In this document: positions 1 to 22,406 of the stretch, in pieces
Layout: each line of letters opens with the position of its first letter
Numbering within the stretch: position 1 is the first letter of the stretch
Source: Escherichia coli
GTDB lineage: Bacteria; Pseudomonadota; Gammaproteobacteria; Enterobacterales; Enterobacteriaceae
Reading direction: 5' to 3' (one strand)
NCBI RefSeq assembly: GCF_029227855.1
Contig: NZ_CP074356.1
Length of the DNA: 64,000 bases
Position numbers and translations under genes: made by a program
Notes under the pieces: model-generated
Told to the model about the DNA's origin: nothing
The model's database searches: none
The model's input: only the letters and a program-made list of their open reading frames with translations

Positions 1-18
1 TCACAGTACCGACCTGAT

Positions 19-672
19 ATGCCGTTTTGGCGATTACAAGGCGACGGATTCTGGCAATTACACAATGCCGAGCTTTGCTCAACAGCAGGGAGCAGCCGAC
101 AACCGCCAGTGAAGGAACTGAACGAATACCACGTTGCAGGCGGTTTCGATGAACAGCACTACGCCCTGGTAACCGGCAATAAAAAACTCATCAATACTCT
201 GGCGCAACAGATACTCGAAGCGCACTTCACCGAGAGTATTCAGGAAGAAATTGCTGACGAGCTGGGTTTTGATCTCCAGCAAATCCGTAAACAGCGCGAC
301 CCGTTATTTCGCAAAAATGTATTACGCGCTTATAACTACCAGTGCGCGATATGTGGCTTTAATATGCGCCACGACGACACCACCGTCGCGCTGGAAGCGG
401 CGCATATAAAATGGAAACAGCACGGCGGCCCTTGTGAAATCCCCAATGGTCTGGCGCTTTGCGCAATACACCATAAAGCCTTTGATAAAGGATCGATTGG
501 CCTGGATGAAAATATGCGGGTACTGGTCTCGGATGCGGTAAACGGCGGAGGGATCGTTGAGAGATTATTCTGGGATTTTGACGGGAAAACTATTGCGTTG
601 CCACAGGTGCGTAAAAATTACCCTTTTGAGGGGTTTGTGGAGTGGCATCGAAAAGAGGTTTTTAGGGGGTGA
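19..672 (+). CDS. HNH (His-Me finger) endonuclease-domain protein; possibly 5'-partial, since the frame is open from position 1
   Basis: Translation carries a CxxC...H...N...H pattern (YQCAICGF ... EAAHIKW ... NGLALCAIHHKAFDKG). No in-frame stop between position 1 and the ATG at 19, so the N-terminus may lie outside the window. Confidence 0.6.
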   Translation: MPFWRLQGDGFWQLHNAELCSTAGSSRQPPVKELNEYHVAGGFDEQHYALVTGNKKLINTLAQQILEAHFTESIQEEIADELGFDLQQIRKQRDPLFRKNVLRAYNYQCAICGFNMRHDDTTVALEAAHIKWKQHGGPCEIPNGLALCAIHHKAFDKGSIGLDENMRVLVSDAVNGGGIVERLFWDFDGKTIALPQVRKNYPFEGFVEWHRKEVFRG

Positions 673-984
673 GGTAGCCATTATATATCTTTCACCTAGG
701 ATTTTAAATGTAATAGATAAAGTATTTTCTGACACCGAAAGTAGTATTTATGAGTACATAGCCACAAATCAATTTTAAAATCTCAATATAAAATACGTTT
801 ACAAATATTCTAGTCAGAGTAAATATATATTCATTATAAGAGAATCCAATTATTAACCAATCGAAATTACAAATTAAAAAACAATTGGCATGTTGAATTG
901 TACACTAATTTATATACATAGTAAATTTACATCTATTCATGATATAATTATCGTGATATCAATTCATTAATCAGGAAAATCATA

Positions 985-1287
985 ATGGAATTGTTAAATA
1001 CTTATGATGATAAAGAAACAGCTGAAATATTTTTTGAAAAAATAGACGGAGAGAAAAGATTAGCAAGTGAGAGAGATGCTACAGAAACAGTCTATAACCT
1101 CTTCGGGCAACCAACATGGAAAAACTTTTATCTTCTTGATATGTTTAACCTAAAAGAGTTACAAGGGATTATAGAGTGTAGAAAAAATGGACAGCCGTTC
1201 GACCAGGAACGACACAGGGAAATAATAAAAATGCTTGAATATGCAGCAAAATCGTTTGACCTAATTATTCCTGCACATTGGCGATAA
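985..1287 (+). CDS. hypothetical small protein (100 aa), convergent with the Res-like gene
   Basis: ORF with ATG start preceded by a very AT-rich putative promoter region (672..984); no recognisable motifs. Confidence 0.4.
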   Translation: MELLNTYDDKETAEIFFEKIDGEKRLASERDATETVYNLFGQPTWKNFYLLDMFNLKELQGIIECRKNGQPFDQERHREIIKMLEYAAKSFDLIIPAHWR

Positions 1288-1290
1288 TAT

Positions 1291-1321
1291 CTGTTCCATA
1301 TCTCACAGAGATATGGAACAG
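1291..1321. terminator. perfect 14-bp inverted repeat between convergent genes; likely bidirectional intrinsic terminator
   Basis: ctgttccatatctc / aca loop / gagatatggaacag read directly; sits between the stop of the + strand ORF (1287) and the stop of the minus-strand Res-like gene (1334). Confidence 0.5.
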
Positions 1322-1333
1322 AATCATAATTAT

Positions 1334-4300
1334 TTACTCGCTAACCATCTTACTGAATAACTTCTCCAGATAAACGGGGCCTGTATCCTCAATAAAAAGC
1401 ACATTTCTGGCTTCCAGATTTTCTTTTGAGTCAGGTACGTTTACTAAGTCAACATAACAAGTTTCAGAAACAATAAATGCACTTAATGATAAGTTATCAT
1501 CCGATAATTTATGTTCAAGATTCTTAATTTCTTTATATAATCCGAACTTCGGATCATCAAGATTAAGATTGCGAATGCCTTTTGGATCAATAAGACTTAG
1601 CCATTGTTTACCACTTTTATCATCGACTAACCACAATAAGAAATCCGGATAAAAATTACCCGCAGTAGCAAAGCCCAGGCCTTTATTTTTAGAATCCGCA
1701 TTTCTTAGCAGATATAAACTTTTATCACCAATAATTTTCTGCCCTTTTGTCGAATCAACAAAAGACTGAAGATCCTGAACAAAAGTAATCTCGCTTGGCG
1801 CACCAAGTGCTGCCGGTCGCATTTTTAGCGGTATATTGGCATTTTTTTCAATCGAAAGAAGCGGGTAATAGAGATGTTTATCAAAGGTAATAGCAACCAT
1901 CCCGGATGCACTCCAGGATTTTGCTTTACCGATTTCGCCGTCGATGACCAATTGTTGTAATTGTTCCAGCCGACTGGCATAAGCCAACCCATCATCAGTT
2001 TCTTCGATCTCGAAATGGTACATTTTGATCATACCAGGATCATCTTCTTTCACCTGCGTGACTTCATAAAACTGACCTTCATAAGCATTTTTCAAGGTGT
2101 TGTAAAAGCGATCAGTATAATCAGTCAGCAGACGAAGCATAATATCTTCCTGCTTAGCAATATCTGCATATTGCTTAATCTCAAGCTCTGAAGCTGGAAT
2201 CAAAAGGGTATACCAACTATTTCCGATCTTTGTCTTACCGGTACAAAAGTCGATCAAACGTTGTTTATCCACACGTAAATTTGACCAGCCGCGTTGTAGT
2301 TTATAATTCTGAATGGCGAGATAAAGCCGATCAAAATCAAATGCACTAATGATTTTATAATCTAACTTCGCTTCATTGCGCACGTTAACCGGAGTATTGT
2401 CCCCTTTTCTGCTGGTATCAATCGACTCAAGTTTCGGGTATAAGTCCAGCTTAATATGCGGCTGCTTAATTTTCCCCTGAAAATCAGCAGGAACTTCATA
2501 CAATTCGGGAAAATAGACACGTTTAAAGCCGAGTCTTTGATTATCTTTATAACCATCTTTAAGCTTAAGTGTTTTAAGCCTGGTTGCTGGCATATTTGGC
2601 CGAGTTTCAAAATTCAGCTCAAGGATCTCGTCACTTGGCGTAATCCCTTCATCTTCCAGGTATTGTTTAAAGGTTGCCATGTAATCGGCACGTACACCGA
2701 ATACATTCAGTGTCTCTAATTTTTCCAGATGCAACCCTTTCGGACGCTCACCGGGTGTACTGCGTTTCAAAGAATAATTGCGACCTTTAAGGCGTACGCC
2801 ACGACCAAATAACTGAATGATCTGTGAACCTTCTCCACGGCCCATATTGAGCAATCCCATCGTTGAGACGCGCCAACTGCTCCAGCCTTCAGTAAATTTT
2901 CGCGAGCCGATCAAAATATGTAGTCGCGAGTCTTTGTCATTTAACGTATGAAAGAGTGACTTTGCAAAATCATCTCTCTGATAATCAAATGTCGTATCCT
3001 CTTCACACATTTTGTAAAGAGACGGTGCATCACCAATATTGATAAGGCCAAACGGTTCGGCCTCACCAACCTGTAATGCCAGTTCACCTTTACTGCCTAT
3101 TAAATTCAGAACTCGCAGTCGCTGACCAGAGTGAGTGGTGTTAAACAAGCGAGAAAGAATATCTGCGTAGATATCTTCCGGAGCGTTCATTAGTGCAGTA
3201 AAGCGATTTTCAAAAATGTTACGCTCTTTGGTATCGAGGATTCGCGCTTTATTTTTAATGAGATCGTTAATCCACGCTTTTGCCTGCGTTTCGTGGTTTA
3301 AAAACCATGCTAAAAAACGCAATACTGCGTGAATGTCTGAATCTTCACCACTTACCGTATTACCGACAAAAACCCACAGCGGTTTTTCGATATTAAATTC
3401 ACTTAATTTTTCTTTATTCTTATTGAATAAATATTGTTGCTGATAAAAGCTGAGCAAACACGCGGTAAAATACTCATACCGACGCTCATCTTTTTTATCC
3501 TCTTCAGGATTAAGGTTAAGAATCAGTGATTCTTTACCATAACCATCCTCATAGAAGAATTTATAGGAGTAATCGAACAGAATCGATTTTCCATAGACCT
3601 CTCGCGTCGCCTGAATACGCGCATCTCGTTTTTCTTCGCTGGTTAATGCTATTTGCGCTAACTCTTCTTCGTTCAGTTTACCTAAGGCCGTTGTTTCAAA
3701 AAGCAGCTTTGCTTTTTTCTTCTGAATTTCTGTTTCAACTGCCTCAACATTATTGCCACCGGCTACTGCCTGGCCAAAAGTTGCTGAATATTCAAACGCA
3801 AATCCGTCACGTGTTAATTTGTCACGACGGCGCATCCAGGCACCAGCAGCACTTCCGGTGCCTTTATGCCCTTCATCAATCAGAACCAGATTGTTGCCTT
3901 CAAATGCCTCAACGGCAACAGTTTTGTCACCCATTTCATCGGCAAGTTTATTGATATCAATAACTTCAATCGTGCCTTTGAAGGGCGCAGATTTACTCTT
4001 ATCGAATAACTGGTATTGGGTAAATCCTGAGTTTTCCAGCTCATCTAAATGTTGCTTCGACAGGCGTTCATCCGGCGTAAGCAGGATGATTTTATCCGGG
4101 TAATGGTGGGTATTACCGTTCTGGAAATAATGTAAATATTGCAAAATATTGACATGCAATAGCAGTGTTTTACCCGAACCGGTAGCGTTCCAGTATGCAA
4201 GTTTATTCAAGTCATCTAGAATGTATGATTTGAACTGATTAGCCCGGTCTTTTGCTGTTTTATCATTTTCAGCATTGTATGCTGCCAGCTCGTTATTTAG

Positions 4301-4714
4301 CCCATCGAGTAATTGCTGTTTACGATTGAAGTACCAGTCCAGGTAGATCTCGGTAAACAGAAGCGACAAGTACTGAAAATATTTCATATTCAGCACGGTG
4401 TCTTCTTTGCGATTACGGTGCTCAGTTATCTGCTGCCAGTGCTGTACGATATTGAGATCGTAACGACGCAGTTCATCGAGATCGATAAGATCGACCTCGA
4501 ATAAATAGTTACTCAGCTCATGGAAGAACAAGCTTTGGCCATCTTCATGGATGCCTTCAAAGCGATCTTCACCTAACCGATTTTTTAAACCTTGCAATGT
4601 GCCATCTTTAAAAAAATGGAACATAAAGCGGTTCAAAACCAGTTGCTTATGAAAGCTCAGTTTGCTGTTTGTCTCTTTTTTAACAGCTTTACCGGTGGTC
4701 GGTTTTTTAGCCAT
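1334..4714 (-). CDS. Type III restriction Res-like protein: superfamily-2 helicase with C-terminal PD-(D/E)xK nuclease motif (1126 aa)
   Basis: Walker A ATGSGKT, motif II LVLIDEGH, motif III SAT (EYSATFGQ), motif VI QLFGRGVRL; C-terminal NFYPDFLLWLV ... LSLIDPKG fits PD...DxK. ATG at 4714 lies 2 nt after the upstream gene's stop, with a GGAGGAGG Shine-Dalgarno inside that gene's 3' end. Confidence 0.8.
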   Translation of the reverse strand: MAKKPTTGKAVKKETNSKLSFHKQLVLNRFMFHFFKDGTLQGLKNRLGEDRFEGIHEDGQSLFFHELSNYLFEVDLIDLDELRRYDLNIVQHWQQITEHRNRKEDTVLNMKYFQYLSLLFTEIYLDWYFNRKQQLLDGLNNELAAYNAENDKTAKDRANQFKSYILDDLNKLAYWNATGSGKTLLLHVNILQYLHYFQNGNTHHYPDKIILLTPDERLSKQHLDELENSGFTQYQLFDKSKSAPFKGTIEVIDINKLADEMGDKTVAVEAFEGNNLVLIDEGHKGTGSAAGAWMRRRDKLTRDGFAFEYSATFGQAVAGGNNVEAVETEIQKKKAKLLFETTALGKLNEEELAQIALTSEEKRDARIQATREVYGKSILFDYSYKFFYEDGYGKESLILNLNPEEDKKDERRYEYFTACLLSFYQQQYLFNKNKEKLSEFNIEKPLWVFVGNTVSGEDSDIHAVLRFLAWFLNHETQAKAWINDLIKNKARILDTKERNIFENRFTALMNAPEDIYADILSRLFNTTHSGQRLRVLNLIGSKGELALQVGEAEPFGLINIGDAPSLYKMCEEDTTFDYQRDDFAKSLFHTLNDKDSRLHILIGSRKFTEGWSSWRVSTMGLLNMGRGEGSQIIQLFGRGVRLKGRNYSLKRSTPGERPKGLHLEKLETLNVFGVRADYMATFKQYLEDEGITPSDEILELNFETRPNMPATRLKTLKLKDGYKDNQRLGFKRVYFPELYEVPADFQGKIKQPHIKLDLYPKLESIDTSRKGDNTPVNVRNEAKLDYKIISAFDFDRLYLAIQNYKLQRGWSNLRVDKQRLIDFCTGKTKIGNSWYTLLIPASELEIKQYADIAKQEDIMLRLLTDYTDRFYNTLKNAYEGQFYEVTQVKEDDPGMIKMYHFEIEETDDGLAYASRLEQLQQLVIDGEIGKAKSWSASGMVAITFDKHLYYPLLSIEKNANIPLKMRPAALGAPSEITFVQDLQSFVDSTKGQKIIGDKSLYLLRNADSKNKGLGFATAGNFYPDFLLWLVDDKSGKQWLSLIDPKGIRNLNLDDPKFGLYKEIKNLEHKLSDDNLSLSAFIVSETCYVDLVNVPDSKENLEARNVLFIEDTGPVYLEKLFSKMVSE

Positions 4715-4716
4715 TC

Positions 4717-6513
4717 TTAAACCTCCTCCGCAAACATCAGGTTCAAGAATTCAGGTTCGATCTGGCGGATTTTCAGGCTACGAACAATCTCGCCGTCTTC
4801 TTCATCAACAGTAAAGGCGGTAGGTAAGTTATGATCGCCATTGATATAGATAACGTCGAACGTGTTTTCTTTTGCATATAAATCGAATCGGTTGGCATAT
4901 TTATTCAATTCTTCATAACCGATCTTGTCGCAATCGCGCCACAGAATAAGGGTACGCTCGCCTGTTGGTAGCATTCCTTCAACACGCACATAGCCACGTT
5001 CGATATTGGATTCGATGGATTTCACATGTAAACCAATGAGATAGTTGAAAGTTTCAACTAAATCGATGTTTTTACGCTCAGTGGCACCGGCGGAATCCGT
5101 CGCAATATCCATTTCGTAGTTAAATGGTTTTTTGAAATTATCAGTACTGAGTAGTGAACCTTTGCTTTCTGTTTCAAGCATATATTTTATTAAATACTCA
5201 TTTGCTACTGATTCATTCACTGTATCAAAAAGATCTTTTATTTCTTTTTGTTGTTCAAATCGAAGGCTATTTAATACATCTTCGTAACTTTCTATTTTCA
5301 TAACTTTAAGTATATGAGATGAGCCTGTCGTTGAATCCATAGCTTTACCATCTTTCCAATTGCTACTGAATATAACTTTTCTCAACCTGCTTAAAGTTAC
5401 ATTTTGTGCATACTCCCCCTGTTCAACAAGTATATATTTCCTTGAACCCGCATCCTTACGATTCAACTCTATGACTGAGTGGCCACTTGTTCCTGAACCA
5501 GCAAAAAAATCTAATATTATCTCATTTTTATTATGAGATGCACTCCCAATTAAATAATTATATAAAGAAGTTGAGTGACAATAAGGAAAATCAATTCCAA
5601 GATGAGTTGTTTGAGTTTTTCCTTTTTTAGCATCCTGAATTATTGATGTTATTTGCTTTTTAGCGTCAGCATATAAATATGCTTTCTGTCTAGGTTGCGT
5701 TGTTTCATCAACACCAAATAGTATATCCCCCTTATCCATCATATCTTTTAATGTTTCTGGGGTACGAGAAAAACCATTTGGTGGCATAGCGCATGGTTTC
5801 CCGGTAACTGGATGAATTAATGGTATATAGAATTTCTTGTCAGTCCTTGGCTCTGGGGCACGGAGGCTGACACTCTGGTACACTCGACCTTTCTCATCGA
5901 TATATTTGTAAGCTTGTTCACCTCCAGTAAGTTTTTTATTCTTTGTTACCCAATCATAAAATTTTTTCTTTGCTTCACTGTTAATTACAGGATATTTATT
6001 CTTAATTAATTTTGCATATTCGAGTATTTCTAATACATTCTCATTTTTCTTATTAATAGAAATCATGTTCTTTGTAAAACAAGTAGTATATTCATGTTGA
6101 ATCGCAATGCCACTACCACCATTCATGGGATTGCGTTTATCCCAAATAATTGTCCCTGCATCGATAAGACCTAACTGTTTATTAATTAAATAAAGTCGCT
6201 CATATTCATTTTCATCAATATGACAAAAAAATACACCATTTTCACTGAGTAAATTTTTAACAAAAAGCAAACGGCTATCCATCATACTCAGCCAACTTGA
6301 ATGCTTAAAGCTATTTTTATATAAAAAACCACTAGTATCTGTGTTATATGGTGGATCTATATGGACACAATCAATTACGGAATTATATTTTTTCTTCAAA
6401 AGATTTAACGCTTGATAATTATCACCATTAATAAAAACGCCATCAACATTATCGTCAATATCATTGATACTATTTAATATTTTTTCCTTAGATCTCCGTT
6501 TAAATGAGATAAA
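4717..6513 (-). CDS. beta-class N6-adenine/N4-cytosine DNA methyltransferase (Mod-like); no canonical start, probably joined to the upstream ORF by a -1 frameshift
   Basis: Motif IV IDPPYN followed later by motif I LDFFAGSGTSG (order IV then I is beta class). The ORF track starts at a TTG (6399), but the frame is open upstream to 6513 and encodes a conserved-looking pre-motif segment (DGVFINGDNYQALNLL). No ATG/GTG between the stop at 6514..6516 and 6399. Confidence 0.75.
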   Translation of the reverse strand, partial: FISFKRRSKEKILNSINDIDDNVDGVFINGDNYQALNLLKKKYNSVIDCVHIDPPYNTDTSGFLYKNSFKHSSWLSMMDSRLLFVKNLLSENGVFFCHIDENEYERLYLINKQLGLIDAGTIIWDKRNPMNGGSGIAIQHEYTTCFTKNMISINKKNENVLEILEYAKLIKNKYPVINSEAKKKFYDWVTKNKKLTGGEQAYKYIDEKGRVYQSVSLRAPEPRTDKKFYIPLIHPVTGKPCAMPPNGFSRTPETLKDMMDKGDILFGVDETTQPRQKAYLYADAKKQITSIIQDAKKGKTQTTHLGIDFPYCHSTSLYNYLIGSASHNKNEIILDFFAGSGTSGHSVIELNRKDAGSRKYILVEQGEYAQNVTLSRLRKVIFSSNWKDGKAMDSTTGSSHILKVMKIESYEDVLNSLRFEQQKEIKDLFDTVNESVANEYLIKYMLETESKGSLLSTDNFKKPFNYEMDIATDSAGATERKNIDLVETFNYLIGLHVKSIESNIERGYVRVEGMLPTGERTLILWRDCDKIGYEELNKYANRFDLYAKENTFDVIYINGDHNLPTAFTVDEEDGEIVRSLKIRQIEPEFLNLMFAEEV

Positions 6514-7838
6514 TTAACTGTTGCAAACTTGAGCAACTCCACATCAGAGGTAGATGGCTTCTCATCTAAGATGCCTAATTCAATCCATTCTTGGACTATT
6601 TTTTCATTATTAATTATTTCACTGTAAAACTCTGAACTTATTTTGTCCATAGTAATATAGTAATTACTTGAAACAACAAACTTCTTCTTAGTCCAAAGTT
6701 TCTTCTGGAAATTCTCAATTTGTGCCAAAAATGCAATGAGTTCCAGCGCAACAGTACGCAAACATTGAATCATGCGCAATTGTTTCTCAATATTGGCAAA
6801 CACTTCTGCATTTTGCACATTATCGAGATTCATTACTTCATTTTTAATATAAAAATCCAGTTCGTTAGTTAAAAAACCACCGAGATCTTTATGAATAAAG
6901 TAGTCTGCTGTATTACGCTGGGTATAAGTTGTAAGATGACGCTCCAACTCTGTACGTGACGGATTTTTTTCTGTTGGCGCACGTTTAGCAAGATCAACCC
7001 AATGCTGTTGAACTGTTTTATCAGCCAGAATTGTTGAAATAGCGGACTGCACTAAAGCATCCTGCTTAGTGCCCTTTTTCATGGCCTTATATTCGAAGTG
7101 AATAACTAACTCTTCTGTTTCAACGAGTTTACCGTCAACCACAGATGAAGTTTTCACCACTTCTACTGGCTTATATTCTTGTTCGTACTCATCGCCTTCT
7201 TCATCAATTTTGGTACGAACATGCGGCTCAATAAGTACAAAGCAGCGATCTAATTCATTATCTTTACGGTTATCTTTTGCTGTGTCCGCTGCGAGCAATT
7301 TAAAGCTAACTTTACGACCCTCATCTAATTTAAATGAATAATTAGCAAAGTTTTCACCGCTTTTAATGTAGTACTGGTCCTTATTTGCCCAGTGCAACAT
7401 CACTTCTTCGCCAGAATAAGGGATGGCGTAGGTATTACCTTTATAACGGCGTTTGCTGATAAAATCGCCGTTGTCATAATAACGCGAAAAGAAAGTCAGC
7501 AGATGGGAAAATACTGCATTTTCATGCTCATTTGCTCCGGATGCCATAGCCGCCAGTTGCTTTTTAAGCTCCTGTACTTTCGGGCTATCAGCAGGGTCCA
7601 CACCCGCATCAGTTGCCGCTTTTATTGTCAGTTGCAACTGATGTTCTAATTCTGATTTATTGGCATTTCCTGCATCCGCCAGCGCAGACTGGATTTTGGC
7701 CTTCAGCTTATTATCCAGATAGTCGTTAATTTCATCAGCACGTGCATTTAAAATACGATAAATACCGAAATCCAGTTCTGGTCGATCAATCTGAAAAATT
7801 TCTTTTAGCTTCTTAACTAATTCGTTGTACTTACTCAT
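6474..7838 (-). CDS. uncharacterised protein (454 aa from ATG at 7838); possible N-terminal part of a fused methyltransferase
   Basis: Long ORF with no motifs I recognise. Lies 20 bp downstream of the SNF2 gene stop; its 3' end overlaps the open methyltransferase frame (6474..6513). Confidence 0.7.
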   Translation of the reverse strand: MSKYNELVKKLKEIFQIDRPELDFGIYRILNARADEINDYLDNKLKAKIQSALADAGNANKSELEHQLQLTIKAATDAGVDPADSPKVQELKKQLAAMASGANEHENAVFSHLLTFFSRYYDNGDFISKRRYKGNTYAIPYSGEEVMLHWANKDQYYIKSGENFANYSFKLDEGRKVSFKLLAADTAKDNRKDNELDRCFVLIEPHVRTKIDEEGDEYEQEYKPVEVVKTSSVVDGKLVETEELVIHFEYKAMKKGTKQDALVQSAISTILADKTVQQHWVDLAKRAPTEKNPSRTELERHLTTYTQRNTADYFIHKDLGGFLTNELDFYIKNEVMNLDNVQNAEVFANIEKQLRMIQCLRTVALELIAFLAQIENFQKKLWTKKKFVVSSNYYITMDKISSEFYSEIINNEKIVQEWIELGILDEKPSTSDVELLKFATVNLSHLNGDLRKKY

Positions 7839-7858
7839 TATTTTCTCTTTCAAATCAA

Positions 7859-21018: not shown

Positions 21019-22406
21019 ACCAGAAATGATTTGTTCAAGTTCAAAATCTGAAAGTGTGATGTTCAGATTTTCTCTGTTTTTTTTATGTAAGCGATAAAAC
21101 GTTCCGGGGGATCATAAACATTAAGGGGCAGTACGGAGATATTACGCTCTCCAAGATAATAAGAGTAATACGCATTTGTTCTTTCATTCATAACCTTATC
21201 CGACAAAATTTTCTGAACCATCCTCTTTCTCCGGTTGCTTAAAAATTAAACATAATAAGGTGATAATAACATGATAAAAAGAAGTTTATAATGGTATATT
21301 AAGGTGGTCAATAAAAAGGCAATCTGCGCGCTGTACAGTCATTCTGACAGGAAATGCAGGAGGAAGGGAAGGTAACCGGCTTCGTTATGCTGACAGGAAT
21401 ACCTGTTATCATGGAAGTGCACTCATGTGGCCGACGTAGCTTAAGAGGATGGAAGAGTGGAGACTGCAGACAGGGGGTATTGAAAGGTAAACATGTTTCG
21501 CCCGCCAGCTGCACCGGGGGCCAGCATCACTTTTTTTACGTTGTAACCCGGTATGCATTCCGGCTTTGATGATTACAGTCAGAGGGCAGCAGACTGACGT
21601 TATTTAACCGGACAGAAAAATTATGGACACTGAAATATCGTCTGTTAATACCTCGTTTGTCGGTGTGGTATTCCCTGTATTACCGGCGTCACCGATAAAG
21701 AGAGTTATAAACGCCAGAAAGGTACCTCCTTTATGCCGGGGAACACTTACGGAAAATGAAGTCTGAAAAGGAGCACAATGAAAAGAGGCGTGTCCCGTAA
21801 ATATAGGGGCAAATCCAAGGTGATACCAGAGGGCATTAAACTGTCGCCACGGATAAGAATATACAACATTTCTGATAACAAAACATCATAACGTGTTTCA
21901 GATATGTTCCGGCATCAGTCTGACGGATATTATTTCCCGGTAAAACAAACCGGCTACTGTAACGGTTAACTGTATCTGCATAAATTATTTATGATGAAAG
22001 AACAGTATTACGGATTCAAATATCATCCTGTTTGCATTCAGGCGGACATTCCCGGATGCCGGAAAGAATATCCTGCAGGCTGAGTGAGTCTCTTCCACAG
22101 TGCCGGGATCGCTGTCGCCACGTACATATTGTCACCAGGATGGGTATGTACCGCAGCATGCCATTTCTGGTGAATAACCGCACCTGCACATTCAGTCTGC
22201 TGAGAACCTGGCGTGTATCGGGCTGTAAAGAACATCCCTGTCCGTGGCTCCTCTGGTGGTGTTGCCTGCTCAGCAATGACAGGATGCCCTTAAGACGCCC
22301 GTCATGGCTCAGTATGATGACGACGAACACGCTCTGCAGGTGAGCATGCGGGGCCGGGAGCATCATCATTTCCGTATTTTGTCACACCTTCCGGAAGCAA
22401 CCGGCA

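Follow-up and report, generated by a model that had tools for sequence, protein, structure and literature searches.

Two groups of Type III restriction-modification (R-M) enzymes frame the locus described here: the classical EcoPI and EcoP15I enzymes, and Eco86II of Escherichia coli NCTC86, a Type III system whose Mod subunit makes N4-methylcytosine (m4C) at GAGCC (Murray et al. 2021, PMC8259958). M.Eco86II alone is sufficient to methylate this site, the Eco86II Res subunit carries Walker A, DExH and C-terminal PD-(D/E)xK motifs, and the native enzyme cut plasmids with head-to-head sites about 25 bp 3' of GAGCC (PMC8259958). EcoF9792I from strain F9792 and EcoB4103II from strain B4103-1 are listed with the same GAGCC m4C specificity (Table 4 of PMC8259958), and our literature searches returned no paper on an Eco86II-type system besides this one. 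Here, we analyzed a 64,000-nucleotide stretch of E. coli contig NZ_CP074356.1 (assembly GCF_029227855.1), referred to as the window, with a focus on the open reading frame (ORF) that closes a three-gene block near its start. This ORF is very probably the res gene of an Eco86II-type Type III R-M system, that is, R.Eco86II, although the neighboring mod gene is split by a frameshift as sequenced.

Identity of the res gene

Comparison of the translations revealed that Res agrees at every residue with the Res encoded at the same locus of NCTC86 (WP_001085525.1). The SNF2-like protein encoded by the first gene of the block is 100% identical to its NCTC86 same-locus copy, and Mod, once the frameshift is repaired, differs from NCTC86 Mod at one of 1040 residues (D173E). 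From gene order and strain, we infer that the NCTC86 locus is Eco86II, and the identity of Res to the protein of that locus is the reason for reading the ORF as R.Eco86II. The same coding sequence (CDS) is present in the RefSeq annotation of E24377A, NCTC86 and other strains, and the locus is shared, at about 100% identity, by F9792 and B4103-1. Of 5426 complete genomes, 135 contain at least 80% of window positions 1-12000, among them E24377A, F9792, B4103-1 and NCTC86. The system is thus already known, having been characterized in 2021, and its family is already represented in the REBASE-derived PADLOC models.

Profile searches agreed on the class of the protein. The PADLOC REase_III model PDLC03654 matched Res over its full length (residues 3-1124, 2326 bits), Pfam matched only the ResIII/DEAD region (167-313), and NCBIfam was found to be without a model for Res. 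In an alignment of 55 Res representatives at 33-60% identity, the Pfam ResIII match recurred in all 55, and the elements G-GKT, DE-H, SAT, Q-FGR-R, E975, P1023-D1024 and P1044 were invariant. Position 1043 is Asp in 49 representatives and Glu in the remaining 6, and position 1045 is Lys in 46 and His in 9. Judging from this alignment, the conserved motifs are not due to chance. The first-pass annotation, made from the sequence alone, had placed Walker A at ~178, DEGH at ~283, motif VI at ~640 and the nuclease motif near residue 1000; this order was reproduced, and the positions were right to within about 20-45 residues. The strand, left unstated there, is minus.

Several observations nevertheless weigh against this identification. 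Published cleavage by Eco86II was only partial and came from a partially purified native extract (PMC8259958). Neither phmmer nor a hidden Markov model of the 55-sequence family found EcoP15I Res (4ZCF) among PDB sequences, and hhalign aligned only 38 columns around motifs II-III with EcoPI Res (E 0.027). By these searches the Res family appears to be without significant sequence similarity to EcoPI/EcoP15I Res, and the alignment with these enzymes that had been suggested as a check turned out to be close to uninformative.

Domain architecture of Res

An AlphaFold2 (AF2) model of the whole Res protein was obtained with a predicted local distance difference test (pLDDT) score of 89.1 and a predicted template modeling (pTM) score of 0.79. 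In this model the chain is predicted to consist of a helical N-terminal domain, a superfamily 2 (SF2) motor formed by RecA1 and RecA2 with insertions, a mixed spacer and a C-terminal PD-(D/E)xK domain. The two RecA-like lobes match SF2 structures, and a Foldseek search with the full model returned CSB, SMARCAD1, SsoRad54, MDA5, XPB and EcoR124I HsdR, a generic resemblance to SF2 translocases.

The C-terminal core comprises a helix (973-987), three strands (999-1004, 1025-1030 and 1037-1045), a second helix (1055-1070) and a final strand (1075-1083), which is the canonical alpha-beta-beta-beta-alpha-beta order of PD-(D/E)xK enzymes. The first helix contains E975 and strand 3 contains D1043-P-K1045, with D1024 placed where strand 2 begins; based on the model, we propose E975, D1024, D1043 and K1045 as the catalytic set. 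Fold neighbors of this domain include PD-(D/E)xK folds, and a profile of the domain searched against PDB sequences gave non-significant matches only. Structure prediction had been named beforehand as a possible refutation of the nuclease, and the C-terminal region was modeled as a PD-(D/E)xK fold. To the published motif assignment the present analysis therefore adds fold-level support for the nuclease domain, together with the proposed catalytic residues.

The suggestion that Res follows a Type III rather than an HsdR layout is borne out by the full-length REase_III match and by the C-terminal PD-(D/E)xK topology. That the protein is instead a motor nuclease resembling Type I HsdR or Type ISP enzymes is hardly credible: the nuclease occupies residues 965-1085 of 1126 and is thus C-terminal, and the all-helical N-terminal domain is without a nuclease motif. 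The operon lacks both hsdS and hsdM, Res is partnered by a beta-class Mod in which DPPY precedes FxGxG, and neither a methyltransferase nor a target recognition domain (TRD) is fused to the motor, whose structural similarity is to SF2 proteins in general. Both readings were accordingly rejected on domain order.

An N-terminal extension of ~170 amino acids had also been noted, and it was confirmed here, with 177 Res residues ahead of Walker A and a helical domain modeled at ~20-150. The domain is kept throughout the family, at a median identity of 36.5% and nearly gap-free, and yielded no match in Pfam or in a PDB sequence search. In EcoP15I Res, RecA1 starts at residue 7 (PMC4490356), and the N-terminal region of Res is therefore a real additional domain of ~130 amino acids; by motif offset, the extension relative to EcoPI Res is about 90 amino acids (EcoPI Walker A at 87). 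Members with 35-47% identity that come from two-gene mod-res loci without an SNF2 homolog also carry the domain, which makes it a feature of the family and not an adaptor specific to SNF2. A family-wide helical N-terminal domain, absent from EcoP15I Res, is a second addition of this work. The helical insertion that follows motif III, by comparison, is confined to the closest relatives of R.Eco86II, and elsewhere a median of 45 of its 52 positions are gapped.

Table 1 Features of the res locus in the window, with Res residue numbers where applicable.
Feature	Res residues	Window position	Strand	Basis or remark
res ORF		1334..4714	minus	ATG start, 1126 aa, last gene of three-gene minus-strand block
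All-helical N-terminal domain	~20-150	4265..4657	minus	AF2, pLDDT about 88-97
Walker A / motif I, TGSGKT	178-183	4166..4183	minus	motif and family alignment
Walker B / motif II, DEGH	280-283	3866..3877	minus	motif and family alignment
Motif III, SAT	310-312	3779..3787	minus	motif and family alignment
Helical insertion after motif III	321-372 (~52 aa)	3599..3754	minus	AF2 and alignment
Motif VI, QLFGRGVR	634-641 (QLFGRG = 634-639)	2792..2815	minus	motif and family alignment
FYPDF; IDPKG	1021-1025; 1042-1046		minus	motif positions
Predicted PD-(D/E)xK nuclease domain	~965-1085	1460..1822	minus	alignment, model and fold neighbors
mod-res junction		4712..4726	minus	GGAGG 4726-4722, mod TAA 4719-4717, GA spacer, res ATG 4714-4712
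mod, M.Eco86II-type beta-class N4-cytosine methyltransferase		4717..7838	minus	1040 aa if intact, here split
mod ORFs as sequenced		6474..7853 and 4717..6399	minus	mod read as two ORFs
Homopolymer A tract (coding strand), -1 frameshift site		6480..6485	minus	A6 here, A7 when intact
SNF2-related, DrmD-like ATPase		7859..10750	minus	963 aa, first gene of operon, no nuclease motif
Homopolymer contractions relative to E24377A		6479; 21084; 31843		7 to 6; 9 to 8; 10 to 9

The split mod gene and the state of the system

In E24377A, NCTC86 and F9792, mod is a single CDS of 3123 nucleotides encoding 1040 amino acids. In the window, the frameshift at the A tract yields the end ...GDLRKKY-stop after Mod residue ~452, and the downstream ORF, which could start no earlier than a TTG at 6399, corresponds to the C-terminal 560 amino acids of Mod. 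A single PADLOC MTase_III profile covers both ORFs, with matches at its positions 1-458 and 486-1057, respectively; in NCBIfam, neither half matched anything beyond weak CcrM-like models. All of the N6_N4_Mtase core recognized by Pfam (residues 489-812 of intact Mod) falls within the downstream ORF that abuts res, where DPPY precedes FAGSG in the beta-class motif order, IV before I. Residues 1-488 of intact Mod (~6375-7838) form an N-terminal region of ~490 amino acids with no Pfam match ahead of this core; in EcoP15I Mod, DPPY is near residue 125 (PMC4490356).

At the junction with res, a GGAGG lies 7 nucleotides upstream of the res ATG, and the mod stop and res start abut with a 2-nucleotide spacer and no overlap. 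At all three loci taken from distant relatives (35-47% identity), the stop codon of mod overlaps or abuts the start codon of res. The coupling to the upstream methyltransferase that had been proposed from near-overlapping codons is not supported as stated: stop and start are 2 nucleotides apart, but the ORF abutting res here is only the C-terminal 560 amino acids of a frameshifted Mod. The first-pass annotation had pointed out neither the split of mod nor the SNF2-like gene.

Following the established Type III mechanism and the published Eco86II assays, an intact Mod subunit would make m4C at GAGCC, and Res would bind a dimer of Mod located at GAGCC that is not methylated. The Mod-Res complex would then enter a sliding state through ATP hydrolysis, and upon meeting a second complex at an inversely oriented site, the nuclease would cut ~25 bp 3' of the site. 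Type III Res subunits have no DNA-recognition module of their own and act only in complex with Mod. Since Mod is split and Res needs Mod, the system should neither methylate nor restrict as sequenced; Res would be left without an intact targeting partner, and the system is probably off. Loss of both methylation and restriction is tolerated by the cell. The earlier description of Res as a cleavage-competent effector thus stands in part: the protein has the same sequence as Res in the Eco86II source strain, for which site-specific cleavage has been published, but the mod of this copy is broken as sequenced. If the sequence is correct, res is intact but idle, and if it contains an assembly error, the window holds a working Eco86II copy.

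The balance between an assembly error and a real mutation in the mod tract is roughly even. That the frameshift is a homopolymer assembly error, in which case the locus would be fully functional and Res active on unmethylated GAGCC DNA, is a serious possibility that we place just short of an even chance. Compared with the Sanger-sequenced E24377A, all three clean indels in ~53 kb are one-base homopolymer contractions, a pattern typical of assembly error, and an exact look-up of the truncated Mod N-terminal fragment, using either start, found no such product on record; both points count against an off state. Besides the frameshift, mod has a single conservative substitution, and Res and SNF2 are unchanged, which suggests no decay. 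However, A6 is also present in two other complete genomes, MS 21-1 and H22. The H22 locus is only 97.7% identical, and about 400 bp separate its SNF2 end from a tRNA-Leu gene, with no island between. A fourth genome, MB06101, has A8. These off-length tracts could also reflect real recurrent slippage. The mod genes of MS 21-1, H22 and MB06101 are all flagged as frameshifted in RefSeq, and about 30 others have A7. That this homopolymer is also variable in three other E. coli genomes is a further addition of the present analysis.

The same tract lengths bear on the idea that the A tract is a contingency switch, in which slippage between A6, A7 and A8 would toggle Mod, and with it both restriction and m4C methylation. 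Among the 34 loci with this mod allele, which comprise the window and 33 genomes, 4 have off-length tracts, on at least two sequence backgrounds and with changes in both directions, and Type III mod genes are described as classic phase-variable methyltransferases (PMC5909438). On the other hand, A7 is short for an efficient slippage tract, other homopolymer contractions are also found in the window, and no m4C phase-variable example was known according to PMC8259958. The off-length records all have recent accession numbers and may be long-read assemblies. We consider such a switch quite unlikely. If true, it would constitute the first m4C phase-variable Type III system.

This mod family is carried by 166 E. 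coli genomes, 33 of which match over the full length; the other 133 match the ends only, with about 53% coverage and about 97% identity. The middle of the gene (~5500-7000) has a low GC content of 0.31 and coincides with the stretch unmatched in these 133 genomes. This pattern indicates that target-recognition regions have probably been swapped in mod, pairing other specificities with the same Res.

The SNF2-like gene, surroundings and comparison with known systems

The first gene of the operon encodes an SNF2-like protein that matches DrmD models (PADLOC, 1.3e-199; NCBIfam DISARM_DrmD_b, 666.7 bits). Its C-terminal part of ~280 amino acids gave no domain match. A helicase-like ATPase gene 5' of mod in the operon was noted previously, with its role flagged as an open question, and the SNF2-like gene is conserved beside mod-res in more than 500 genomes (PMC8259958). 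It is conceivable, but in our view unlikely, that this ATPase is a true third component in vivo, for example in restricting phage or protein-coated DNA while being dispensable in vitro; in one variant of this reading, A6, A7 and A8 would act as an ON/OFF switch. If the three-component reading were true, Eco86II-type enzymes would form a mechanistically distinct class of Type III enzymes.

The DrmD-like match and the conserved neighborhood also raise the alternative that the three genes form a DISARM-like system (defense island system associated with restriction-modification), in which the 1126-residue protein would be a DrmA-like helicase acting together with the DrmD-like SNF2 protein. This is very improbable, as the DrmD score falls below the curated NCBIfam cutoff of 950. 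The locus is without DrmA, DrmB (DUF1998) and DrmC (PLD), with no further genes in the low-GC block (1..~11500), and Res matches REase_III only, not DrmA. Mod and Res were present in active Eco86II fractions, whereas SNF2 peptides were absent, and F9792 is listed as GAGCC-methylated (PMC8259958), yet its SNF2 gene proved to be frameshifted. Distant members of the Res family, moreover, occur with mod alone. DISARM was rejected on the absence of DrmA, DrmB and DrmC from the locus and on the DrmD score below the cutoff.

GC content is low (0.31-0.45) in the stretch that holds the three-gene block and rises above 0.5 near 11500, where this stretch ends, and a promoter and terminator scan gave nothing above background bearing on the operon. 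On the other side of res, RefSeq assigns the plus-strand gene at 1-672, which starts ~200 nucleotides before the window, to a phosphorothioated-DNA-binding restriction endonuclease, and in PADLOC this gene has matches to HNH models. Between it and res lies only a plus-strand ORF of 100 amino acids (985-1287, WP_000421875.1), hypothetical, convergent with res and with no PADLOC match; this end of the island therefore constitutes a small defense cluster. A large mosaic island (~11000-58314), bounded by tRNA-Leu(CAA) at 58230-58314, has the operon at its far end. In E24377A, the annotation of the corresponding region includes CbtA/YeeU toxin-antitoxin genes, an antirestriction gene, Ag43, the fec operon, copies of the insertion sequences IS66 and IS3, and a group II intron. 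By coordinate mapping, the contraction at 21084 lies within a CDS for which the E24377A annotation gives a hypothetical protein.

Compared with known systems, the locus resembles Class 1 DISARM in having an SNF2/DrmD-like ATPase beside a large amino-methyltransferase, but its effector is a Res-type helicase-nuclease. With EcoPI and EcoP15I Res it shares the domain order, an SF2 motor followed by a C-terminal PD-(D/E)xK domain, and the position of the gene directly downstream of a beta-class mod. EcoPI Res, at 970 amino acids, has GTGKT at 87, DEPH at 226, QEVGR at 530, PD at 897 and ETK at 916, and the spacing from PD to (D/E)xK is 19 residues in the window Res and 18 in EcoPI Res. By contrast, Walker A and motif II are separated by 101 residues here and by 139 in EcoPI Res, and the window Res is longer, at 1126 amino acids, with the extra helical N-terminal domain of ~130 amino acids. 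Its partner Mod also differs from those of EcoPI and EcoP15I, having 1040 amino acids with a ~490-residue N-terminal region and producing m4C rather than N6-methyladenine, and the operon contains the additional SNF2 gene. Eco86II, EcoF9792I and EcoB4103II have the same gene order and flanks as the window locus, which differs from Eco86II in its mod tract, A6 in place of A7, and hence in having a split mod, with otherwise no notable difference.

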